This document shows positions 23,972 to 49,050 of a DNA stretch of 64,000 bases, piece after piece; the first letter of the stretch is position 1; each line of letters begins with the position of its first letter. The stretch is from a virus. The stretch lies in IMG/VR virus record IMGVR_UViG_3300029133_000263. One strand, 5' to 3'. The translations under genes were made by a program, and so were the position numbers. The notes beneath the pieces were generated by a model that saw only the letters and a program-made list of their open reading frames with translations, ran no database searches and had not been told where the DNA came from.

Positions 23972-24502
23972 GTGAATAGCAAATACCGAGAGCAAACCTG
24001 CTGCTTTGTTGGGCACAAGGATATCCCACCGGGCGAGCAGCTCAAAATATTGGCCAGGGTGGAACACCGGCTTATTCCACTTATCCAGCAGGGAGTCACT
24101 TACTTTGGTATCGGCGGTTCTTTAGGTTTTGATACTCTTATGGCGGATATGCTGGTTTCGTTGAAAGCAGCACATCCCCGAATTCGCGTTATTGAGGTTT
24201 TGCCTTTTGAGGGATACCGTTCTAAATGGAGCTTAGAACAGCAGCGGCATGCCGAGAAAATAGACAAGCAGGTAGACAAAATAGTATATGCTGCGAAAGA
24301 ACCAGGCAGGGGAGTATACCTTCTAAGAGACCGACATCTAGTCGATTACTCTGCTTATTGTATCTCCTATTGCACAAGGACTACCGGCGGCACGGCATAT
24401 ACGGTGAAATACGCTCTGGAACACGGCATAACGGTGTACAACGCCTCCAGTTTCGATGTGAGCGCCTTGCTTCAGGCCCGACCGCTTGCGAAGAACGGAT
24501 GA
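23972..24502 (+). CDS. DUF1273/YpsA-like SLOG-family protein
   Basis: N-terminal CFVGHKDIP motif and overall SLOG-like pattern; GTG start with AAAGGAGA RBS. Confidence 0.55.
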   Translation: MNSKYREQTCCFVGHKDIPPGEQLKILARVEHRLIPLIQQGVTYFGIGGSLGFDTLMADMLVSLKAAHPRIRVIEVLPFEGYRSKWSLEQQRHAEKIDKQVDKIVYAAKEPGRGVYLLRDRHLVDYSAYCISYCTRTTGGTAYTVKYALEHGITVYNASSFDVSALLQARPLAKNG

Positions 24503-24950: not shown

Positions 24951-25452
24951 TTCATTTTTTTTGCGCGAAAGAATATCGGATAAGTGACGCTTCTTACTCG
25001 TATGACCGAGAGAAAACATGCAAAGACTCTACCATTCTGGTAGGGCTTTTTTGCTGCCCAAAAAGTTGGAAAAATGTCGCAAGCGAGCCGCTGAAACCTC
25101 GGAATTTTGTCGCAGCCTTTCCGAATATGAGATGTATCTCACAAAAGCGAAATGCGCTGCTTCGTATCTGTGGTGAGACAATCGGAACAGGCAAATAGCA
25201 AAATCTCAGCTGCCGCAAATGCTGTCAAGTTCAAATCACAACTCCCAAAAGTTTCGTTTGGGAAAGCCTGCATTAAAAGTTTCGTTCTGGAAAATGCAGA
25301 GGGGAAAGGAAAATGTCGAAGCATATATGCACTGATTTTCTTCTTGCTATTTGTGCAATCCGCTCAAATTGGCGATAAATATTCCCAAAATAAATAAGTC
25401 AAAGTGCTTTTGGTGTATAATGGCTCTGACAAACAGAAAAAAGGAGAACACT

Positions 25453-26535
25453 ATGAAAAAGGTTGTATCATTAGCACTTTCGACTTTGCTCGTCCTCTCG
25501 TTGGCTGCCTGCGGCAAGGCGAATAGTTCCGCTGCAACAGCCGCAAGTGAATCCAAGTCAAGTGCTTCGTCAAATAGCACTTCCAATAGCACGCAAGATT
25601 ACAGCCCTGACGGGATTAAAGTAGGAGAGACATATACTACAGAAGACGGCAAAACATATGAAAGGGTGTGGAACGGCACAGGCAGCGATTTACCTACGCC
25701 GTCCCCCGAACCCAAAATTACATACGATAATGATTTCCAGGCACAGACACTTGTTGATAATGAAGAATGCACCATTATCTTGCAGAGCGTAGGCTACGAT
25801 GATGATTACGGCTATTATTGGAAGCTTTACTTCAAGAATAAGACATCAGATAAAAAACTCGGTTACTCGTTTGGCGACTGCACATTGAATGGCGTGGGTG
25901 CGAGCCTTTGGCTTACGAGTGTTGAACCTGGTCAAGAGGAAACGGAGATTCATCATTGGGAAAGTTCCGGGCTTAAAATTTATAACATCAATCCGCAGGA
26001 TATCAATACGGTAAGTTTTTATCTCGATGTCTATAACGAATTAGATTATGATGTTATCCCACGGCATGACTTTGTTGATGACGATTTCGTGGTTTATCCA
26101 AAAGGGGAAGAAAACGCAACCGAGCCAAAGCATGAAACCCAACCCACAGACCTCGTACTGGCCGACAATGACGCTTGCACTCTGATGATTTGTGGATTTG
26201 ACCCCGATGGCCTGCACGGTTATACGACCAAAGCTTACATAGAAAACAAGACGGATAAAGAAATCATGTTTGCCTTTAGAAGCGGAGGCTCTATAAACGG
26301 TTTTGAGTGCTTCCCTGAAACAGATACAATGGGAATTGATGCGCACACTAATGCCTATGTAGACATCTACTATTACGATTATTTAGATACTTATGAGGCC
26401 AACGGTAAAGACCCCACCTCTGTCACCGAAATGGTGATGCCAATCGTTATAAACAATTCCAGCACTCGGGACATCTATGTAGATGAGACTTTCACTATTA
26501 ACCCTCAGACAAATTCCGTGACAACATCGGAATAA
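25453..26535 (+). CDS. lipoprotein with two tandem copies of a ~130-aa domain
   Basis: signal peptide + lipobox LAAC; internal repeat (…NDACT.MICGFD…GF.C.PE…NAY.DI.). Confidence 0.6.
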   Translation: MKKVVSLALSTLLVLSLAACGKANSSAATAASESKSSASSNSTSNSTQDYSPDGIKVGETYTTEDGKTYERVWNGTGSDLPTPSPEPKITYDNDFQAQTLVDNEECTIILQSVGYDDDYGYYWKLYFKNKTSDKKLGYSFGDCTLNGVGASLWLTSVEPGQEETEIHHWESSGLKIYNINPQDINTVSFYLDVYNELDYDVIPRHDFVDDDFVVYPKGEENATEPKHETQPTDLVLADNDACTLMICGFDPDGLHGYTTKAYIENKTDKEIMFAFRSGGSINGFECFPETDTMGIDAHTNAYVDIYYYDYLDTYEANGKDPTSVTEMVMPIVINNSSTRDIYVDETFTINPQTNSVTTSE

Positions 26536-26749: not shown

Positions 26750-27217
26750 ATGACGAGCATCCAGCCAAAATATCCGAAAGGTGAAGAGAAAGCGACAAAA
26801 CCAAAACACGAGATTCAGCCCACGGATATTGTGCTGTTCGACAATAATGCCTGCAGCATGGTCGTTTGCGGATTTTATTCTGATAGTTTCATGGGCTATA
26901 CGGCAAAAGCCTACTACGAAAACAAAACCAACGACCGTATCGATGTCATTCTGGACAAAGGCTCTATCAATGGTTTTGAGTGTACCCCGGAAGGGACAAC
27001 GCTGCTGGAACCACATTCTAACGCCTATATTGATATTCGTTGGCAGGAATATGCCGAAACCTACGCAGAAAATGGCAATGACCCAACATCCATCACAAAA
27101 ATTGTAATGCCAGTTTTTGTGAGAAAAGACACAGGGAGCAATACGGTATACATTGACGCCACTTATTCCATTGACCCGCAGGCAAGAACTGCAACGCCGA
27201 TAGTGAACCCCCAATGA
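26750..27217 (+). pseudogene. truncated paralogue of the lipoprotein repeat domain (no signal peptide, starts inside the domain)
   Basis: sequence parallels the second repeat of the 25453 gene. Confidence 0.4.
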
Positions 27218-27349: not shown

Positions 27350-27386
27350 ATAAAAGCGCTCACCATTTTTCGGTGGGCGCTTTTCT
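27350..27386. terminator. bidirectional intrinsic terminator
   Basis: GCGCTCACC..GGTGGGCGC stem with T-runs on both strands. Confidence 0.6.
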
Positions 27387-28916
27387 TCATTCTTCGGTTT
27401 TCTTTTTCAGCCACTGCCTTCTAACGAACGGCGTTACATAGGTTTCATCACTCTTCAGCTCATAGCCATAGCTTTCAGCTATCAGGATGGCACGTTCGCT
27501 TGCTTTCTGTCCGGCAGGCAGGTGGCGAATGAAACCATTGATGTTTTTGGACGAAGCATCATATTTGGACTTGTCGAACACCCGCAGCGGCTCGTCGTCA
27601 TCATTGCCTTTCTTGCGATAATCGCGGGGCTTTCCGCCAATCATCAGACAACGAATCCCGAATGGAGTATCCGCGTGTGTCACAAACGAAGACCGGAACG
27701 ACGCATCAGTGGGCAGGACATCCGGCAAATCACAGGCGAGAGAAGTGTACAGCCAGAGAATCAGATTCGTGACGCTGTCAACCAGCTCTGGAAATTGAGC
27801 CCGGTCAGTCAAAATATAAAACCACTCGGTGCTTGTGTTATAGTATCCGGCCAGGTCACCAAACTTGGTTACGATTTTATACAGACACACAATCTCGTTG
27901 TCGCGGCAAGTCTCTTTCAGCTTAATTTCCTGTATCAGCTGGCAGGCATCAAACTGAAACAATGCACCGTTGGCGGGAAGAGTTCTGCGGCGATGGTGCA
28001 GCGTATCTTTCAGAAACTCTGTCGTATATTTGGGTGAGATGGGCTTTGGCCACCAGGACCACATGTTCGGAGTATTCTCAATCAGCGGCTTGTCCGGCAG
28101 CATGTCCACGGTATACTCGTTCACATAGGTAGCCATCGAAAGGACTGTGTTCGTATACAAATGTGAGAGCAAAGCAAGGTTGTTGATGCTGTCGAAGTCG
28201 GCAACGCCCTCATAACCATAACGCTTATAGTACGAAAAGACCATATCCAAGCGTCTGTCTTCAGAAATCTGAGATTCACATTTGTCGTATGGCCGATTGT
28301 TGAAAAGAGCATCACTATAATAGACAGGAACATCGGCGAGGGGATAGGGGTCCCGGATGATGATTGGCTCGTTCTCAGTTGAGATACCGACAATGTTGTT
28401 CACAATATCGAATTCCTGAGGCTTGAGGTATTCGCTCCCCTGCATCAGCATATCGATTACCGCGTACAGGACAGAATCATTACGTTCCACATTTCCGTCA
28501 ATGGATAATCCTGAATGAACACATTCCTGCACATAAGCAATGGTCTTAAAGTACAGAGCATAGTCCTTATTCTTCTTGATGGGCTTTGTGAGCTCCTGCA
28601 TGAGCCGATGATATCCCTTGATGAATTTGTCAGAGTTCGCCATAGCAAGCTCTATCTGAGAGTTAATGGCCTCAATGATAGGCTTACATTCCTCGGCTTC
28701 ACGAGCCAAGTGAAAAAGGAAAGTGGACGCTTTCCCGAAATCTGCATCATGCAGCGTCGCCACGACCTGGCAAGCACTGGACAGGGTTCTTCTCTGAAAT
28801 ACCCAGATAGACTCGCCTTTGCTCCGATACTTCTTATCCCATACCGGTGCGTATTTATCGACTAAGGCATTACCGAAATCTTCCTGCACTGCCAAAACAC
28901 CATTTTCGTTCTGCAC
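27387..28916 (-). CDS. hypothetical 509-aa protein, second gene of a minus-strand operon
   Basis: long ORF; starts 10 nt after the upstream HD-domain gene's stop. Confidence 0.6.
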   Translation of the reverse strand: MQNENGVLAVQEDFGNALVDKYAPVWDKKYRSKGESIWVFQRRTLSSACQVVATLHDADFGKASTFLFHLAREAEECKPIIEAINSQIELAMANSDKFIKGYHRLMQELTKPIKKNKDYALYFKTIAYVQECVHSGLSIDGNVERNDSVLYAVIDMLMQGSEYLKPQEFDIVNNIVGISTENEPIIIRDPYPLADVPVYYSDALFNNRPYDKCESQISEDRRLDMVFSYYKRYGYEGVADFDSINNLALLSHLYTNTVLSMATYVNEYTVDMLPDKPLIENTPNMWSWWPKPISPKYTTEFLKDTLHHRRRTLPANGALFQFDACQLIQEIKLKETCRDNEIVCLYKIVTKFGDLAGYYNTSTEWFYILTDRAQFPELVDSVTNLILWLYTSLACDLPDVLPTDASFRSSFVTHADTPFGIRCLMIGGKPRDYRKKGNDDDEPLRVFDKSKYDASSKNINGFIRHLPAGQKASERAILIAESYGYELKSDETYVTPFVRRQWLKKKTEE

Positions 28917-28926
28917 GGTATCCTCC

Positions 28927-30324
28927 TTACAACTTTAACTGCCCCACACAACTCTGCGCAGTGGGCAGTAGTTTGTGGGCCATCTCGTTGCGGAAATACT
29001 TAGGGTCTACGGCTCGCATCCCGAACCGCACACGGTCTAAAGCATCTGCGTCTTTCAGAATCGTATACAGCAGCCACACCCGTTCTTTGTCCCGGATATT
29101 GGATGCTTTGAGGTCTGCAAGAGCTTTGCGGTCGTCTAAGCAATGATATTTGATGAGGAAAGCAGTTGCCGAATTGCAGTCGGAGTCTGCGTCATAATAA
29201 ATGTCCCTGGACTTTGCTCCGTGACTGTCATCGACATCATCATTCGTCCGCCCAATATCATGATAAAGAATCGCATCACATAGCTGGTGGGATTCTTTTT
29301 TTGTTAAGGCAATGCCCTGAACCTGGACAAGGAGCAGAGCATCAAAGAGAACCCGCAGCGTGTGCTCGGCATTGTGCTCCTCGTCATCAATCCGGCCATA
29401 ATCATCGTACAGTGCGGAGATACGGCTCCGGTAGCGCTGGTAGAGAGGGTAGAACGCCTGAATTTCATCTGTCAGAGCGTTAATGCCGTATAGTGTATCG
29501 ACCTTTCTATCTTTTACAGCAGCCGGTGGGACAAGGACCTCTTTTTCTTCATCATTCGGAAAATACTCGATGATGTCACATTTGCTGACATGGGCAGTGA
29601 TGATTCTGCTGTTCTCGAGACTCGGGATGCGGCAGGCAAAGAAACAGGCTGCCTTGTAGCTTGTGGTCCAGGAGAAAGATTTCTCGTATGGAGTTGACTT
29701 ACTCCCTTCCCCACGATAGATGGTCACAATATCCGGCAGGCTGGATAGCTTCTTTTCAGTGTCCTGCTTTTGCTTCTGAGACTTTCCAGAAAAGACTTTC
29801 TGAAGGTTATCCTCTTTGAGAGCCGAGAACCCAAAATCACTGGTACGATAGAAGTCCAGAAAAAGTGCGTATAGATTCTCACCCGGACTGGACAACTCAA
29901 TGTACCTGGAAAGAACAGACACACGAAGGCTGTTTTCCAGGGAAAAGAGGTAGCTGCGAATGAAGGGGGCGTTTCCCGATGAGATTTTCTCGGCCATATC
30001 CAGAACTCTCTGCTGAAACTTTTCGTCCGATTCGCCGTTCACAGCCAGACGCTTGTCCCCGTAAATGTTCAGAGAAAGAACAATGGGAACGGTCGTGCTA
30101 TCGAGCTCGCAATAATAAAGAGGAGCAAGCATATTGTGCGCAGCATAAATCTTGTCGACGGGGAGTCTCGGATACTTTTTAGCGAATTCAGTGGCCGTTA
30201 TACCGATGCTGTAGCCTTCTTTGTAGTACCGTTCAATGTCAGCACTTGTCTGCACTGCAGTGAGGGGTAGCATCGTCTCGAGACTTGCTTGGTTGATGCT
30301 TACAAGAATATCCCCGACCGTCAT
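28927..30324 (-). CDS. HD-domain phosphohydrolase-fold protein with unknown N-terminal domain
   Basis: C-terminal H..L..LYHDIGR...D motifs (HD); GGGAGGAG RBS; TATAAT upstream. Confidence 0.6.
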   Translation of the reverse strand: MTVGDILVSINQASLETMLPLTAVQTSADIERYYKEGYSIGITATEFAKKYPRLPVDKIYAAHNMLAPLYYCELDSTTVPIVLSLNIYGDKRLAVNGESDEKFQQRVLDMAEKISSGNAPFIRSYLFSLENSLRVSVLSRYIELSSPGENLYALFLDFYRTSDFGFSALKEDNLQKVFSGKSQKQKQDTEKKLSSLPDIVTIYRGEGSKSTPYEKSFSWTTSYKAACFFACRIPSLENSRIITAHVSKCDIIEYFPNDEEKEVLVPPAAVKDRKVDTLYGINALTDEIQAFYPLYQRYRSRISALYDDYGRIDDEEHNAEHTLRVLFDALLLVQVQGIALTKKESHQLCDAILYHDIGRTNDDVDDSHGAKSRDIYYDADSDCNSATAFLIKYHCLDDRKALADLKASNIRDKERVWLLYTILKDADALDRVRFGMRAVDPKYFRNEMAHKLLPTAQSCVGQLKL

Positions 30325-30614
30325 TGTTTTTCTCCTCCCACAATTCTTTCTAACATAATTATATCATATTTTACAGATGGACGGGCCAAAATCGCAACTT
30401 TGTTCATGAATACTTAAACTTTATGCACGAGATTTATTGTTGCCCTAATATATAAAACTAGAACCCCGTCATCTTGGATGGGGCTCTTGAGTTGTAACTG
30501 GAGGTGTATCTCATTTTGTGCCAGGGGTATTGTATGGTAGTTTTCGAAAATGAGTGCAAAAAAACAAACACCAGAAGTCGAACTCAAAAATATCTTAGTC
30601 TTGGCAAGTTTACC

Positions 30615-30810: not shown

Positions 30811-31198
30811 TAAAGACAGAGCGATTGTGAGATGGGGCGATACCGATGCAGTAGGAATGAGAATCTTAGCAGCTAAAAGAGTCAACAACCCCGCCTAAAC
30901 CGGTTCGCCGGTTATAGACGGGGCTTGCGGGGCAACCTGTAAGCCCAGTTGATTAGCCTAAGCCCATTGCTCCGGCAGTGGGGAAAACTACGTTGTGTAC
31001 TAATAATATAGGCACCTTATCCATGCTCCACAAGTGGTGAGCTCTGCAGGCGTTTCGTTAAACATCTCCGAGGGGAGGAGAAGTGCGAGCGTCATGTCGA
31101 AAGGCTAAAACAGTGCATAACATTGGCGAAGTGGACCACAGGACGCAAGTCCTGACTTATAGTTTTATTACTATTTTACGAATGGAGAAACAAAAATT

Positions 31199-35562: not shown

Positions 35563-35681
35563 CTCAAAAGCGCGGTTTTGTCCGCGCAGCTGCTCCAAAA
35601 GACAGCCTCCACGCGGCGAGCAGCGGGCAACGGGAGACAGTCCCGGCAAATTGTCTTTGAGACGGAAGGAAGAAGTGCCCT

Positions 35682-37476: not shown

Positions 37477-38076
37477 ATGAGCTATGAACCCATTATCACA
37501 CCGGGCAGGAATTTCTTTCTTGTCTCGACGGAGTACAAAGAGAGCAGCTCTGCCTGGTGCCGCAAGCAAATTAGAGCGACACTGAGGACCTGTCAGGGAC
37601 GAGTCATCATCATTGATGCAACGGGCGAGTACGCGGACTTGGCGCTTGAACATGACAGATTGATTCGAGAGAAAATCCCGTCCATCATTTATCGGTATAA
37701 GCTGGTGGACGGGAAACCGTATATTGCTCATGTCATTGAAGTTGATACGGAAGCAAATGAAGCACCGCACCTGATTGTATACGATATCAGCCGGACCATA
37801 ATCACCAGCTGGAAGGTCGGCGTGGAGGCAATTGATAAAATCCTACAATCCTATGCCGTGATGCAGGACAGTGAAATCGCGTGGCTGTATGTTCCGCTGG
37901 ACTTATATACCAATGTCAAGCCCGAAAGCGAATCCTGGAACATTTTGGAACGAACTATCAAGGGTAATGAAGGCAAGCTCATGACAGTACTGACGACTCG
38001 CAAATTCACCATTGGGATGGTCCAGCGCTGTTTGCATATGGCAAAAATCAAAAATAATTTGGAGGATAACAAATGA
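37477..38076 (+). CDS. hypothetical protein
   Basis: ORF; overlaps the next gene. Confidence 0.45.
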   Translation: MSYEPIITPGRNFFLVSTEYKESSSAWCRKQIRATLRTCQGRVIIIDATGEYADLALEHDRLIREKIPSIIYRYKLVDGKPYIAHVIEVDTEANEAPHLIVYDISRTIITSWKVGVEAIDKILQSYAVMQDSEIAWLYVPLDLYTNVKPESESWNILERTIKGNEGKLMTVLTTRKFTIGMVQRCLHMAKIKNNLEDNK

Positions 38077-38960
38077 CCAATGAACAGCTGAGAATCGCAT
38101 TGACGGCGAATGCCGTTACCAAACAAACCCGAAACCATTTTGGATTCAGTGACCCGTGTGGAAAAACGCTGGAAGAATACAACAAGTCCGCGATGCTGTG
38201 CTGCATGACAGCGGCGCAGAGAATGAACACGCCGGGTTTTGAGCGTGTTTTGGCTGCGCAGATTTTTCCCTGCTTTACCATTGGCTGCTGGAATCAGACG
38301 AAGACGGTCTATGATTTTGACTACGAGTTTCAGAAAATGCTGATGGATACGGATGACGTGGCAATTCATCAGGATATCCTGCAGCGACTCCCGGTTCGTG
38401 ATTTCTTTATCCCGGTGTATGACAGCTACGACTACAACGGTATGTTCGTGCATGTGGAATTCGACGAAAAAGAGAAAACCACAGCTTTCGGTATCGTTCT
38501 TGTCGGCCCCACTAAGGGCAGCCACGATGATTTCACGTTCCTGACTCTGCCTGCCTGGGCCAAGGAAAATCAGAGTTTGACGGAAGCAACTCGGAGCACG
38601 AAAGAATACCTGGAAAAGGCAGCAGGGCAGCGGCAAGTAAATGGTATCAGCGTACCGGCTGTGATGGAAGCAGTCCCTTCGGTCTTTGACGGCGGCACAC
38701 CTTATGTCCGGCTGGCAATCCTGTGCGCCAACTATCTTGCCAGCAAGAACCCTGATGTCTGCTTGGAAACTTCCAAAAAGCGTGACCGCCCGGTATTCGT
38801 GTTTCAGGGAAAGGCACAGCGAATCAACGTCAAGACATATACCGTTGGTGAGAATGCGGCCAAAGAATACAAAAAGAATGGGGAAGGCAAAACTCCCCGC
38901 TGGCGGCATTACTGGTGCGGCAATGGCCGGGAACGCCGGGAATGCAAGTTTATTTACTGA
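38073..38960 (+). CDS. hypothetical protein
   Basis: ORF. Confidence 0.45.
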   Translation: MTNEQLRIALTANAVTKQTRNHFGFSDPCGKTLEEYNKSAMLCCMTAAQRMNTPGFERVLAAQIFPCFTIGCWNQTKTVYDFDYEFQKMLMDTDDVAIHQDILQRLPVRDFFIPVYDSYDYNGMFVHVEFDEKEKTTAFGIVLVGPTKGSHDDFTFLTLPAWAKENQSLTEATRSTKEYLEKAAGQRQVNGISVPAVMEAVPSVFDGGTPYVRLAILCANYLASKNPDVCLETSKKRDRPVFVFQGKAQRINVKTYTVGENAAKEYKKNGEGKTPRWRHYWCGNGRERRECKFIY

Positions 38961-43692: not shown

Positions 43693-44145
43693 ATGATTCG
43701 ATTCAGAAAAGATACCCCTCGCTACTGGTTTATGAGTAACTATTATCCTTGCGAATTCGTGATGGATGGGATTCGTTACAAGAATGCCGAAGCAGCGTTT
43801 CAGAGCCACAAGGTTCCGCTGGAAGAGCGCAAACAATTTTCAGACATGCCTCCGGCAACGGCTAAGCATTTTGGCCGTCATGTGGCTTTTCCTGCCAACT
43901 GGGACGAAACCCGGGACGATGTAATGCGCCGCGTGGTGATGGCCAAATTCGAGCAGAATGAGGACCTCAAACAGCGCCTCCTCGAAACGGGTACGCAGCC
44001 TATTGAGGAAGACACGACCAGCTGGCATGACAACTATTGGGGCAACTGCCACTGCCCGAAATGCCGGAACATCCCGGGCCAGAATCGGCTCGGTATCATT
44101 CTGATGGAAACCAGGGACAAGCTGAAAAAGCAAGCGGCCAAATAA
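43693..44145 (+). CDS. NADAR / YbiA-like (DUF1768) domain protein
   Basis: FMSNYYPCEFVMDGIRYKNAEAAFQSHK closely follows the YbiA/NADAR N-terminal signature. Confidence 0.65.
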   Translation: MIRFRKDTPRYWFMSNYYPCEFVMDGIRYKNAEAAFQSHKVPLEERKQFSDMPPATAKHFGRHVAFPANWDETRDDVMRRVVMAKFEQNEDLKQRLLETGTQPIEEDTTSWHDNYWGNCHCPKCRNIPGQNRLGIILMETRDKLKKQAAK

Positions 44146-46779: not shown

Positions 46780-46825
46780 TGGTCCCCATGCGGATGAAAA
46801 TGTCTGCGTGGGGTTTTTTTTAATT

Positions 46826-48016
46826 ATGGAATACTTGTATAAGCAATATAACAACGAACCCGGGAAAGCTCCGACAGGAGAAAAATATATATACGTTATT
46901 ACTGAAATAGAAACAGGAAAAATGTATATAGGACAAACCAGTAATTTCCACGCTCGTATGCGTTCGCATAGAACCTGCAAGTGCAACCAACATAGCGCAA
47001 TTGATAGAGCTATTCAAGAAAAAGGTGCGGACGCATTCCAATATGAGATTTTAGAGTTGTGTGCTGCTGATGACGCTGATAGCAGAGAACGATATTGGAT
47101 AGAAAAATCCGATTCTTGCAATGAACAAAAAGGTTTCAATACGTTTAAGGGCGGCCAAAAGAGTTTTTCAGATGAAAACTACTCTATGCTTGTAGAAATG
47201 CTTCAGCAAGGAATGACATTAAAGACTGCGTGTGACGCTATAAATACCTCTATTGCTTCTGCAAGGAGAGAATTGAAGAGGCGAGACACAAATTTGTCGG
47301 AAATCCGCTGTTCGGCAGCCGAACATAAATATCTGCGCCGCAAAAGCACTCTCGGAAAAGAAATCAATATAGCTGACGTACTGAAAATGTATCAAAATGG
47401 CATGTCATCGAAAGAAATAGCAGAGCACTATGGTATGAACTCATCCGCTTTTTATCGCCGGTTAAAAGAAAATGGGTTGAGCGCCAGAGCAATTGCTCAG
47501 CCAAATTACGGAACAGCATCTGCTCTTTTCGACAAAGATAAAGCTATTGCAATGTGTAAAGACGGATATTCTGCCAGCGAGATAGGCGATGCTATGGGAT
47601 TGCCGTATTACACAATAGAGAGGCTTCTTCGAAAGTCTGGATATTCTATATCATTGATTGCAGATGAAGAAGCAGCAGATAAAAGAAAGAAGCGAAACAA
47701 AAAACGAAGCCAAAATGGAAACTTCAATTTTGAAATGGCCGTTGATTTTTTAAGAGAAGGTTACAAGATACAAGCGATAGCTGATTTGATGGGCATATCA
47801 GATGCTCACCTAAGAACAAAGCTCAAACAAAACGGCTTTGATTTAGAAAAAACGCTTCCAATTATAGTCTGTGACGAAACGGGCGAAACGTTTCTTACAA
47901 TGATAGAAGCGGCAAAAGCGTACAACGTAAGCTATACATCACTACGGAAATGTTTTGAAAAAAAGCAGGGTTACTGTGGCGGCTACCATTGGCACAAAGA
48001 AAAGCAGAATTTTTGA
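46826..48016 (+). CDS. GIY-YIG nuclease domain protein with three HTH repeats and NUMOD-like C-terminus (homing-endonuclease-like)
   Basis: KYIYVITEIETGKMYIGQT...R..H GIY-YIG motif; repeated (Y/M)..G.S..EI......S...Y.RL..NG units. Confidence 0.65.
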   Translation: MEYLYKQYNNEPGKAPTGEKYIYVITEIETGKMYIGQTSNFHARMRSHRTCKCNQHSAIDRAIQEKGADAFQYEILELCAADDADSRERYWIEKSDSCNEQKGFNTFKGGQKSFSDENYSMLVEMLQQGMTLKTACDAINTSIASARRELKRRDTNLSEIRCSAAEHKYLRRKSTLGKEINIADVLKMYQNGMSSKEIAEHYGMNSSAFYRRLKENGLSARAIAQPNYGTASALFDKDKAIAMCKDGYSASEIGDAMGLPYYTIERLLRKSGYSISLIADEEAADKRKKRNKKRSQNGNFNFEMAVDFLREGYKIQAIADLMGISDAHLRTKLKQNGFDLEKTLPIIVCDETGETFLTMIEAAKAYNVSYTSLRKCFEKKQGYCGGYHWHKEKQNF

Positions 48017-48063
48017 CTCCAATGCAAAATACAGCATCGGATTTTTTATTGGGAGATATAGAC

Positions 48064-49050
48064 ATGGCAAAGAATGAGAATCTGCACAAGGCAAAGGACG
48101 CGAAGAACGACGAGTTTTATACCAGAATCGAGGATGTTGCAGAGGAACTACGGCACTACAAAAAGCATTTCGCGGGCAAGGTCGTATTCTGCAACTGCGA
48201 TGACCCGACATGGTCCGCTTTCTGGCGGTATTTCCACCTGAACTTTGCAGAACTTGGCTTAAAGAAGCTGATTTCCACGCACTACGACCGTACAGAACCC
48301 ACCTATAAAATGGAGTACGAGGGCGGAGATGACAACAATGTAGAAGTCGGAGTCAAGACTCCGCTGGAAGGCAACGGTGATTTCCGGAACAAAGAATGCC
48401 TTGACCTGCTGGATGAGTGCGACATCGTAGTCACAAATCCTCCATTCAGCTTAGCTAGAGCCTATGTCCAGTATCTACGTGAGCACAATAAGCAATTCGT
48501 TATTATTGGGGACCTCAACTGGATTACATACAAAGAAATTTTCCCGATGCTGAAAGATAATGAAATCTGGCTGGGATATTCTTCTGTAAAAGAGTTCACG
48601 CAACCTGACGGGACAATCAAGAAGTTCGGGAATAAATTGTGGTATACCAACCTCGACATCCAGAAACGTCACGAGAAGCTGATTCTCTGGCAGCGGTACT
48701 ATGACGATGACGGGAATCCGCTGCCGGATGCAGAGGAGCGCTACCCCCACTATGATAACTACGACGCTATCAACGTGGATAGGGTCGCCGATATTCCGAT
48801 GGATTATCAAGGTGTAATGGGTGTGCCGATTACATTCTTGAATGGTTACAATCCGGAGCAGTTTGAAATTGTGGAGTTAAGTAGATATCTTAACCATGAA
48901 GGAATGTCTAAGAAATTCGTTGAAACGTATTACAAACAAGGCGGAAAAGGCCAAATTAAAGAAGGTCATCCAGACCTTTGCTATTATGATGACAAAGGTA
49001 AAGCAATCGTTCCATACATGCGAGTCCTTATAAAGAAAACAATTGCTTGA
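48064..49050 (+). CDS. putative N6-adenine DNA methyltransferase (orphan)
   Basis: catalytic-type DIVVTNPPFS motif; GGGAGA RBS; no cognate restriction gene recognised. Confidence 0.6.
   Translation: MAKNENLHKAKDAKNDEFYTRIEDVAEELRHYKKHFAGKVVFCNCDDPTWSAFWRYFHLNFAELGLKKLISTHYDRTEPTYKMEYEGGDDNNVEVGVKTPLEGNGDFRNKECLDLLDECDIVVTNPPFSLARAYVQYLREHNKQFVIIGDLNWITYKEIFPMLKDNEIWLGYSSVKEFTQPDGTIKKFGNKLWYTNLDIQKRHEKLILWQRYYDDDGNPLPDAEERYPHYDNYDAINVDRVADIPMDYQGVMGVPITFLNGYNPEQFEIVELSRYLNHEGMSKKFVETYYKQGGKGQIKEGHPDLCYYDDKGKAIVPYMRVLIKKTIA

Follow-up and report, generated by a model that had tools for sequence, protein, structure and literature searches.

What is an isolated minus-strand operon doing in a mobile element whose neighbouring genes run almost entirely on the other strand? 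We analysed a window of 64,000 nucleotides (IMG/VR virus record IMGVR_UViG_3300029133_000263), in which two adjacent genes, here called gene A and gene B, had been proposed as a candidate defence or signalling module consisting of an HD-domain protein and a partner. VirD4 and VirB4 genes are found within the window, and the A-B locus belongs to a conjugative element carried by a Clostridia bacterium of the human gut. ADP-ribosylation plays a central part in the conflicts among bacteria, phages and plasmids, and it is to this chemistry that the first gene of the operon appears to belong.

The predicted operon was recovered as described, with open reading frames of 465 and 509 amino acids, a tight junction and neighbours that are nearly all on the + strand (Table 1). 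Direct reading places the TAA stop of gene A at 28929-28927 on the minus strand and a spacer of 4 nt between the ribosome-binding motif of gene B and its GTG start; translational coupling of the two genes is likely. Purifying selection acts on both genes (dN/dS 0.09-0.15). The operon had also been credited with its own promoter and a bidirectional terminator. Upstream of gene A, we found a putative -35 element TTGCGA (30397-92) and, after 18 nt, a -10 element TAAAAT (30373-68), together with an overlapping, putative extended -10 element TGATATAAT at 30366-58, all on the minus strand; these are consensus matches, and 8 such sites occur in the region when 5.9 are expected. A hairpin lying 3 nt past the stop of gene B is plausibly a strong bidirectional intrinsic terminator common to this operon and the converging + strand genes.

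Table 1 Coordinates of the A-B operon, its modules and its putative signals in the window.
Feature	Position	Strand	Basis and details
Gene A	28927-30324	-	ORF; 465 aa, ATG start
Gene A, small alpha/beta N-terminal domain	30031-30324	-	Residues 1-98; conservation and AF2
Gene A, ART-like module	29470-30027	-	Residues 100-285 (helical subdomain and six-strand core); conservation, AF2 DSSP and hhalign
Gene A, HD phosphohydrolase/phosphodiesterase module	28930-29427	-	Residues 300-465; H321, H355-D356, H368, H394, D425; LKDADALDRVRFG
Gene B	27387-28916	-	ORF; 509 aa, GTG start
Shine-Dalgarno of gene B	28921-28926	-	GGAGGA, directly after the gene A stop; direct reading
Shine-Dalgarno of gene A	30332-30339	-	GGGAGGAG, 7 nt before the ATG; direct reading
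Promoter-like region of the operon	30358-30397	-	Consensus scan and direct reading; consensus matches only
Hairpin	27352-27384		13-bp G+C-rich stem between an A-run and a T-run; putative terminator

The protein encoded by gene A consists of three modules: an N-terminal domain, an ADP-ribosyltransferase (ART)-like module of the R-S-ExE type and an HD phosphohydrolase. The AF2 model has a pLDDT of 90.4. At least 375 homologs were found, and 147 divergent representatives with only 22-47 % identity were compared. The ART-like and HD modules are conserved in one chain in 109 + 5 of the 147, the 109 having the full three-module architecture and the five having ART and HD alone. The N-terminal domain, with its invariant residues G37-Y38, G41, T43, P55, Y71 and P80-I81, is missing in some members, such as the 269-aa protein of the C. 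perfringens plasmid pJFP838A. Since the HD module is missing in 23 of the 147 representatives, the ART-like module can apparently function alone.

The roughly 300 residues that precede the HD module had been regarded as unknown sequence, and it is here that the ART-like module was found. Its motifs are Y159, Y203-R204-G205 on strand 1, S218-W219-T on strand 2 and E260-x-E262 on strand 5, of which the last three give the signature of the R-S-E clade (a strand-1 arginine, a strand-2 serine followed by a helix, and a strand-5 ExE). In the AF2 model, DSSP assigned the first of the three signature motifs to a strand at 199-206, the second to a strand at 218-220, followed by a helix at 223-231, and the third to a strand at 262-264. 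Conservation of these residues is nearly complete across the representatives (R204 and S218 in 146 of 147 each, E260 in 140 and E262 in 144). Profile-profile alignment by hhalign with T4 ModA/ModB gave a moderate rather than decisive probability of 66-71 % (E 3.6-5.8e-5) and lined up all three motifs, the 71 % run (E 3.6e-5) using a ModA/ModB alignment of 7 sequences, while controls with reversed profiles, the HD module and gene B stayed at or below 0.2 %. In addition, the region matched phrog_4776 (6.6e-14) and gave weak Pfam matches to FRG, NarE and KptA. When sets of 18, 92 and 53 family members were scanned with Pfam, no ART model was significant; neither the shallow (A3) nor the deep (A7) profile of the module found an entry among PDB sequences, and no ART structural match was seen in two fold-search hit lists, both of which were saturated by HD matches. 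These motifs and alignments point to a probable NAD-using ADP-ribosyltransferase in the middle of gene A.

The C-terminal HD domain of the original prediction was borne out. The domain has the HD fold, matches the Pfam profile PF01966 and contains an intact H...HD...D metal-binding motif; the ligands H321, H355-D356 and D425, together with H368 and H394, show no variation in A1 and are kept in 109-115 of the 116 HD-bearing representatives. The best fold matches were SidE-family phosphodiesterases, with a marginal lead over generic HD domains, and the fold neighbours include HD-GYP and cyclic-nucleotide phosphodiesterases. Pfam SidE_PDE gave weak hits (E 8e-4) for 2 of the 92 members scanned, and a SidE-type domain, as defined by SidE_PDE and a metal-independent His/His/Glu site, was not found in the gene A HD module. 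Against PDB sequences, the HD profile had 2pq7 as its sole match (E 0.014), and full-length gene A and gene B produced noise only.

Comparisons beyond the gene A family further show that the same HD family is found as the C-terminal module in giant proteins of Bacteroidales that carry a DarT annotation (PF14487), one of which (L048) has 1,846 aa, and that it occurs as a standalone protein in a Sir2-Sir2-HD-NAPRT-isochorismatase operon of Paenibacillus pART37. The gene A and giant-protein HD modules aligned in hhalign at 99.3 % (E 4e-20), and tblastn gave 29-39 % identity to the Bacteroidales and Paenibacillus relatives; phmmer searches with two giant HD-bearing ORFs found nothing in PDB, and hhalign found no similarity between the ART-like module and the giant DarT-annotated proteins. 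The DarT fusions and the Sir2/NAD-salvage operon indicate that this HD family has been coupled to NAD-consuming enzymes repeatedly and independently. The HD module had been viewed as a possible nuclease; because an ART-like module precedes it, a phosphodiesterase acting on NAD or ADP-ribose products is likelier.

We next consider where the family resides. It comprises 4,917 clusters at 50 % identity (E <= 1e-3) and is found on conjugative elements, megaplasmids and phages, including genomes of lytic Herelleviridae and mycobacteriophages, and near-identical DNA was absent from the plasmid and phage collections searched. About one third of the close relatives of gene A are truncated or disrupted by IS elements, which suggests that the gene is readily lost, and homologs in two genomes contain in-frame stops. 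The proposal of an uncharacterised accessory module on a mobile element holds. A housekeeping HD enzyme (dGTPase, (p)ppGpp hydrolase or NTP pyrophosphohydrolase) beside an unrelated neighbour is extremely improbable and is contradicted by distribution and architecture: NCBIfam and Pfam gave no matches to dGTPase, SpoT/Mesh1 or YpgQ-type families, the gene occurs on mobile elements only and shows no conserved chromosomal synteny, its HD module is fused to an ART-like module, and IS disruption is frequent. NCBIfam searches of both genes returned nothing useful, and the PHROGs matches for the A/B region were only to families of unknown function. Literature searches found no description of the gene A family or of an ART-HD fusion, and a search for 'HD-CE' returned unrelated medical papers only; the meaning 'HD of conjugative elements' was considered for this label and is not claimed here.

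The accessory region of the conjugative element places AcrVA2-like, NADAR and YpsA-SLOG genes beside gene A, and the AcrVA2-like and NADAR genes recur near its relatives in the tiers of 58 %, 51 % and 38 % identity. These neighbours, as well as the HD-GYP and cyclic-nucleotide phosphodiesterases among the fold neighbours, would suit a counter-defence protein that protects the element in a new host, the HD module cleaving immune signals (cADPR isomers or cyclic oligonucleotides) and the ART-like module binding such signals or inactivating a defence protein. Phage domains that process ADP-ribose have been proposed to counter NAD-derived or nucleotide immune signals (PMC9503650). We consider this unlikely, as the near-universal R, S and ExE residues argue for NAD+ transferase or hydrolase chemistry rather than mere ligand binding, gene A is oriented opposite to the surrounding cargo genes, and no link to a known anti-defence protein, by homology or experiment, was found. 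Host defence, which had been suggested specifically, was unsupported, since the PADLOC-DB v2 search (E <= 1) matched neither gene to a known defence system and the family is carried by conjugative elements, megaplasmids and phages; the setting fits an element-encoded effector or a counter-defence role at least as well.

Gene B was correctly described as lacking a recognisable motif, in that sequence and fold searches identified no family or fold. It has an N-terminal helical bundle and conserved NEYxxD, RRRTLxxNG, GGK and C-terminal ETxVxPF motifs. Its distribution bears on whether the two genes form a toxin-antitoxin or effector-immunity pair, in which a toxic ART of gene A would be neutralised by gene B or, in cis, by the fused HD. 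Pairs of an ART toxin and a hydrolase antidote are well known, as in DarT-DarG (PMC9503650), and the tight, translationally coupled operon, the in-frame stops in gene A homologs and the presence of gene B beside A-family genes in three divergent contexts are in keeping with such a pair. One of these contexts, at 30 % identity and with the gene order swapped, is locus L089, which also encodes an LPD1-domain protein. Against this, gene A is intact at all loci of the 58 % tier and gene B at only about one third, the remaining loci having a remnant of 45-98 aa or no gene B; it is wholly absent in six further tiers (51-28 % identity); and gene A at such loci keeps all catalytic residues with dN/dS of 0.07-0.10. 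Gene B is also found without gene A, beside unrelated genes. Gene B is dispensable for gene A, and its loss in most related lineages beside an intact and constrained gene A shows that the two do not form an obligate two-gene system or a toxin-antitoxin pair. The co-occurrence and selection data, in which gene B is not retained as a partner, largely refute an antitoxin role, and we regard a reading of this kind as very unlikely.

The same data bear on an abortive-infection or defence effector that depletes NAD+, with the ART-like module acting as an NAD+ glycohydrolase (an activity also proposed for the Frg and RES clades), the HD module degrading ADP-ribose and gene B sensing infection and controlling gene A. 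Frg is a putative NADase of the ART superfamily (PMC9503650), and FRG (PF08867) was weakly matched by 9 of 53 ART segments, but over only about 20 residues (the S-x-x...A..FA stretch), with E >= 0.015 and under the 25-bit threshold. A standalone HD of the same family within a Sir2/NAD-salvage operon, the frequency of defence systems on mobile elements and the repeated disruption of the locus, which fits a costly gene, also point this way. However, the true transferases ModA/ModB give the better alignment to the module, which keeps the ExE typical of arginine-specific transfer, neither gene has a PADLOC match, and the family is present in lytic phages. Gene A moreover persists under constraint without gene B or another conserved partner, and cells would not easily tolerate an NADase that escapes regulation. 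Taken together, such an effector seems improbable.

We therefore lean, tentatively and with something short of even confidence, towards gene A as a bifunctional NAD+/ADP-ribose enzyme, an effector of Bacillota mobile elements (ICEs, megaplasmids and phages) that would first modify a target with ADP-ribose and afterwards process this group. The ModA/ModB-like R-S-ExE module would transfer ADP-ribose from NAD+ to a target, most likely a protein of the host or of a rival element, because arginine-directed transferases typically have the ExE motif. Next, the HD phosphodiesterase fused to it would act on the ADP-ribose moiety, most likely by cleaving the pyrophosphate, which would release AMP and leave a phosphoribosyl mark resistant to ordinary ADP-ribosyl hydrolases. 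Gene B, co-transcribed and probably translationally coupled, is an optional accessory that may serve in specificity or regulation or have a cargo function of its own. That the protein is an active enzyme, the sequence of its two reactions, the kind of target it modifies and its part in establishment or counter-defence are inferences.

Gene A belongs to a large family (about 4,900 clusters at 50 % identity) that lacks a Pfam model for its ART-like half, its carriers are mobile elements abundant in the human gut, and the pairing of ART and HD may be common among mobile elements. To our knowledge, the SidE family is the only characterised case of an ART joined to an HD-fold phosphodiesterase, and its phosphoribosyl linkages resist the normal erasers. 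If the two-step chemistry is true, conjugative elements, plasmids and phages would widely use phosphoribosylation as a weapon, beyond Legionella, and the same logic would have been invented in parallel in the DarT-HD and Sir2-HD couplings. If the domains act in sequence, they would offer a route to new NAD-dependent modifications and recipient-cell targets, and insight into how conjugative elements establish themselves or combat host immunity. Even under another mechanism, an annotation gap is filled, as current labels are only 'HD domain-containing protein' or 'hypothetical'.

Among known systems, Legionella SidE/SdeA-C and Lem26 resemble gene A in joining a mART and a phosphodiesterase in one chain. 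SidE shows no significant sequence similarity to gene A, and its fold score is not clearly above that of generic HD domains. SidE phosphodiesterases are metal-independent His/His/Glu enzymes, whereas the gene A HD keeps the canonical H...HD...D metal ligands, so its chemistry may differ. Gene A also lacks the DUB and coiled-coil domains of SidE, and its target must differ, since ubiquitin is absent from the Gram-positive gut anaerobe that hosts it. In SidE, the ART acts before the phosphodiesterase to form phosphoribosyl linkages, and in Lem26 the domains are in reversed order (PMC12522546, PMC11668277). A SidE-like two-step chemistry in bacteria, with ADP-ribosylation followed by phosphodiester cleavage to an irreversible phosphoribosyl mark or cross-link, is a doubtful but conceivable version of our reading.

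The giant DarT proteins of Bacteroidales and the pART37 Sir2-HD operon share with gene A the HD family and its association with an NAD-consuming enzyme, although that enzyme is a sirtuin or comes from another ART clade and the architectures are wholly different. Frg has the (F/Y)RG motif on strand 1, as gene A does, and is classed in the ART superfamily (PMC9503650, PMC12522546), with a very different spacing from the RG to the S motif. Polyvalent proteins are likewise multi-enzyme products of conjugative elements and phages, often with ARTs, and have been proposed to act early in a new host (PMC5512222); their ARTs are of the H-Y-D type rather than R-S-E, and an HD module is not mentioned for them in that study (Iyer et al. 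2017). Gene A, unlike these proteins, is small (465 aa), with no LPD domain detected.

At the level of sequence, the middle module is closest to T4 ModA/ModB/Alt. In the alignment of ModA/ModB with gene A, the R, S and ExE motifs line up, as does the A..FA helix, and a short spacing between strands 1 and 2 is shared, at an identity of about 19 %. Membership of the Alt/Mod clade is supported as far as motif-level similarity goes. The T4 enzymes have no HD fusion, and gene A has the extra N-terminal domain. Like gene A, ModA, ModB and Alt are encoded by a mobile genome, and they modify host proteins.

We found that gene A, the 465-aa member of the minus-strand pair, encodes three modules, on the basis of an alignment of 18 homologs (39-93% identity) and an AF2 model (pLDDT 90.4): a small N-terminal alpha/beta domain (residues 1-98), a middle module (residues ~100-285) in which six strands and a helix come after a helical subdomain, and an all-helical HD domain (residues ~300-465). 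The C-terminal HD motif of the original prediction was borne out, as Pfam HD was matched by 18/18 homologs, with the window's own protein under threshold, and H321, H355-D356, H368, H394 and D425 were invariant in the alignment and kept in 109-115 of 116 HD-bearing representatives; the identity of this module is secure. The roughly 300 residues ahead of it, previously taken as unknown sequence, instead include an ADP-ribosyltransferase (ART)-like module. Y203-R204-G205 lies on predicted strand 1 of the middle module, S218-W219-T on strand 2, ahead of a helix bearing A226, F229 and A230, and E260-x-E262 at strand 5, which is the motif order of the R-S-E ADP-ribosyltransferase layout. A profile of the module matched 4,917 cluster representatives (50% identity) at E <= 1e-3, and among the 147 best of these, at just 22-47% identity, R204 and S218 were each kept in 146, E262 in 144 and E260 in 140.

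Pfam did not recognize the ART-like module, giving just short sub-threshold matches to FRG (9 of 53 segments), NarE and KptA, which are all families of the ART superfamily. PDB sequence searches with the module were empty, and both match lists of the fold searches were filled with HD matches. Profile-profile alignment against T4 ModA, ModB and five divergent Tevenvirinae homologs taken from phage genomes gave a probability of 71% (E 3.6e-5) for the core module and 66% (E 5.8e-5) for the extended module, whereas the controls (reversed profiles, the HD module and gene B) reached <=0.2%. The paired motifs, gene A first, were YRG with WRG, S-W-T...A..FFA with S-A-S...A..HFA, and E-x-E-V-L-V-P with E-Q-E-V-M-I-P. 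Judged from sequence, the middle module is probably an ART-superfamily domain of R-S-ExE type.

The 147 representatives comprised 109 with the full architecture, 23 without HD and 5 with ART and HD alone, such as the 269-aa protein of C. perfringens pJFP838A, and the conserved unit is the ART-HD pairing. Members of the family are carried by Bacillota megaplasmids, where they are annotated as "HD domain-containing protein" or "hypothetical", and ART-only forms occur in lytic phages of Lysinibacillus, Mycobacterium and Gordonia; the alternative of a housekeeping HD enzyme is refuted. The HD module was also found by itself in ~200-aa proteins from many phyla, and in a Paenibacillus plasmid operon, an NAD-consuming and NAD-salvage cluster whose isochorismatase-family gene is nicotinamidase-like by family. 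In addition, it forms the C-terminus of 1,800-2,050-aa Bacteroidales proteins (hhalign 99.3%, E 4e-20), which had no sequence relatives in the PDB and whose homologs are annotated with PF14487 (DarT ADP-ribosyltransferase). One HD family is thus coupled independently to three NAD+-consuming enzymes, R-S-E ART, DarT and Sir2, and these couplings are the strongest contextual evidence that the HD domain of gene A would act on NAD+- or ADP-ribose-derived substrates.

The analysis establishes the architecture, conservation and contextual couplings of gene A; from there on we infer its activities, reaction order, target and biological role. The reading with the best support is that gene A encodes a mobile-element effector acting in two successive steps, after the model of SidE, the sole characterised precedent of an ART fused to an HD-fold phosphodiesterase (PDE). 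The ART-like module would move ADP-ribose from NAD+ onto a target, and the fused HD phosphodiesterase would then process the ADP-ribose, most plausibly by cleaving the pyrophosphate so that AMP is freed and phosphoribose stays. A phosphoribose left in this way would withstand macrodomain, ARH or NADAR erasers, giving an arms-race advantage. A rival is an abortive-infection effector that depletes NAD+; the pair, put forward earlier as a candidate defence module, matched no defence-system model.

The pair had also been regarded as a two-gene system, which did not hold across ~70 loci with full-length gene A. At >=89% identity to gene A, gene B was always adjacent and gene A was intact save one frameshifted copy (L109). 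In the 58% tier, gene A was intact in all loci and gene B in about one third, being otherwise a 45-98-aa remnant or absent, and in the 51, 41, 39, 38, 29 and 28% tiers gene A was intact and gene B absent. Loci without gene B kept every catalytic residue of gene A, with dN/dS of 0.07-0.10, and distant gene B homologs (28-42% identity) adjoin unrelated mobile-element genes (zeta-like kinase, DnaG primase, DUF4942, RNase H-like protein). Because gene A stays intact and constrained without gene B, and gene B occurs elsewhere, gene B is excluded as an antitoxin, immunity protein or obligatory subunit, and a toxin-antitoxin pair is largely refuted. In one locus (L089), the gene directly after a gene B homolog (30% identity) encodes an ART-only protein of 233 aa from the gene A family (E 2e-29), and the association of gene B with the ART-like module is recurrent but facultative. 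The gene order there is the reverse of that in the window, and PIN7 and LPD1-domain genes lie on the same contig.

Both ORFs lie exactly where the original prediction placed them, as an isolated minus-strand operon among genes nearly all on the plus strand. The TAA stop of gene A is directly followed by GGAGGA, a 4-nt spacer and the GTG of gene B; therefore the two genes are co-transcribed and probably translationally coupled. Gene A is preceded by a Shine-Dalgarno of good quality and by promoter-like elements (TTGCGA-18-TAAAAT with the extended -10 TGATATAAT), and the predicted promoter stands as consensus matches only. The predicted bidirectional terminator corresponds to a G+C-rich hairpin with a 13-bp stem between an A-run and a T-run, 3 bases beyond the gene B stop, which would end transcripts arriving from either side. 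Both genes, where intact, are under strong purifying selection, with dN/dS of 0.09-0.15 for gene A and 0.09-0.13 for gene B against loci at 89-95% identity.

Decay was frequent: among the cluster representatives that are at least 80% identical to gene A, 28 of 86 are truncated or chimeric. The loci L099 and L100 have lost the 5' end of gene A to an IS200/IS605 element (TnpA and TnpB), and their gene B is interrupted by an IscB gene; IscB and TnpA/TnpB elements are inserted within or next to the two genes in these loci and in L083, L086 and L097. The window itself has a solo HEARO/omega-RNA, with no IscB ORF adjoining, in the 875-nt intergenic region 5' of gene A. Two full-length homologs with in-frame stops are either pseudogenes or the result of sequencing errors. 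This locus can be dispensed with and is an insertion hotspot, as would be expected of accessory conflict genes. Among chimeric gene products in metagenome assemblies, P0115 joins residues 1-200 of gene A to the C-terminal part of gene B, which points to a deletion, and in P0108-P0110 and P0112 the N-terminal part is A-like and is fused to FtsH/AAA or radical-SAM domains; all these chimeras may be assembly or gene-calling artefacts.

Features of the window and of the compared loci
Feature	Locus	Position	Strand	Details
Gene A	window	28927-30324	-	ORF, 465 aa, ATG start
Gene B	window	27387-28916	-	ORF, 509 aa, GTG start
HEARO RNA (omega-RNA of IscB/IS200-IS605 elements)	window	30881-31141	+	RF02033, 91 bits, full-length model
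NADAR protein	window	43693-44145	+	1.3e-26
YpsA-SLOG protein	window	23972-24502	+	2.8e-14
AcrVA2-like protein	window	38073-38960	+	PF26125 annotation
HDV-like ribozyme, F. prausnitzii type	window	35589-35658	+	RF02682, 60 bits; just 3' of VWA gene
GIY-YIG endonuclease with multiple HTH domains, then EcoRI-type adenine methyltransferase	window	46808-49050	+	methyltransferase 1e-105
Predicted lipoprotein	window	25351-26535	+	394 aa, internally repeated module
155-aa ORF	window	26750-27217	+	carries repeat module of adjacent lipoprotein
Operon of Paenibacillus sp. 37 plasmid pART37	L183	1680-6226		Sir2, Sir2, HD (192 aa, gene A's HD family), nicotinate phosphoribosyltransferase, isochorismatase-family hydrolase
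Giant HD-ended protein, Bacteroidales and IMG/VR	L048	4964-10501	+	also L055, L062, L064, L067, L171-L176
Gene A homolog, one in-frame stop	L003	10001-11389		Catenibacillus scindens DSM 106146
Gene A homolog, one in-frame stop	L002	10001-11404		stop at conserved Trp codon
Gene B homolog and ART-only gene	L089	8001-10168
Gene A of 51%-identity lineage	L181	8187-11168		antisense to neighbours

The window is a conjugative element, encoding a VirD4/TraG coupling protein, a VirB4-like ATPase and an M23 peptidase, together with a Y-family polymerase, a YpsA-SLOG protein, treble-clef zinc-finger proteins, a SNF2-type helicase, a NADAR protein, an orphan EcoRI-type methylase and a UvrD-like helicase. 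The AcrVA2-like call comes from the precomputed annotation of identical contigs and was not reproduced by our own Pfam scan. With gene A, the NADAR, YpsA-SLOG and AcrVA2-like genes look like an NAD/ADP-ribose-centred, anti-defence cargo set, a neighbourhood favouring the rival view that gene A is a counter-defence enzyme destroying NAD-derived signals. NADAR or AcrVA2-like genes again lie near gene A homologs of other lineages (L131/L181, L110, L144). Gene A once more runs antisense to its neighbours in L181, and what comes after it there, in place of gene B, is an HD_4 gene (RelA/SpoT-type hydrolase-like) and an ORF of 239 aa, with NrdD, TROVE and NADAR genes close by. The methyltransferase had no obvious cognate restriction enzyme and could be an orphan, anti-restriction-type methylase of the element. 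The predicted lipoprotein and the 155-aa ORF had no family match; their paralogous modules share ~52% identity, as measured in L101. Contigs from human-gut metagenomes, up to 260 kb long, carry identical copies of gene A; its full-length relatives in reference genomes were from Clostridia only (L001-L005), and the HDV-like ribozyme of Faecalibacterium prausnitzii type, 5 kb from the locus, hints at the host lineage.

Compared with known systems, the ART-like half of gene A is closest to T4 ModA/ModB, at ~19% identity, and is unlike the ARTs of polyvalent proteins, whose type is H-Y-D (PMC5512222). In the SidE family, ADP-ribosyl-ubiquitin made by the ART is turned by the PDE into phosphoribosyl linkages, and Lem26 has the reverse domain order (PMC12522546, PMC11668277); gene A is alike in domain logic but falls outside the SidE family by its membership tests. 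No description of the ART-HD fusion was found in a limited literature search. We rate gene A as representing a very widespread, hitherto unrecognised clade of probable R-S-ExE ARTs that mobile elements carry hard-wired to an HD phosphodiesterase, which opens a specific and unusual chemistry to direct testing.
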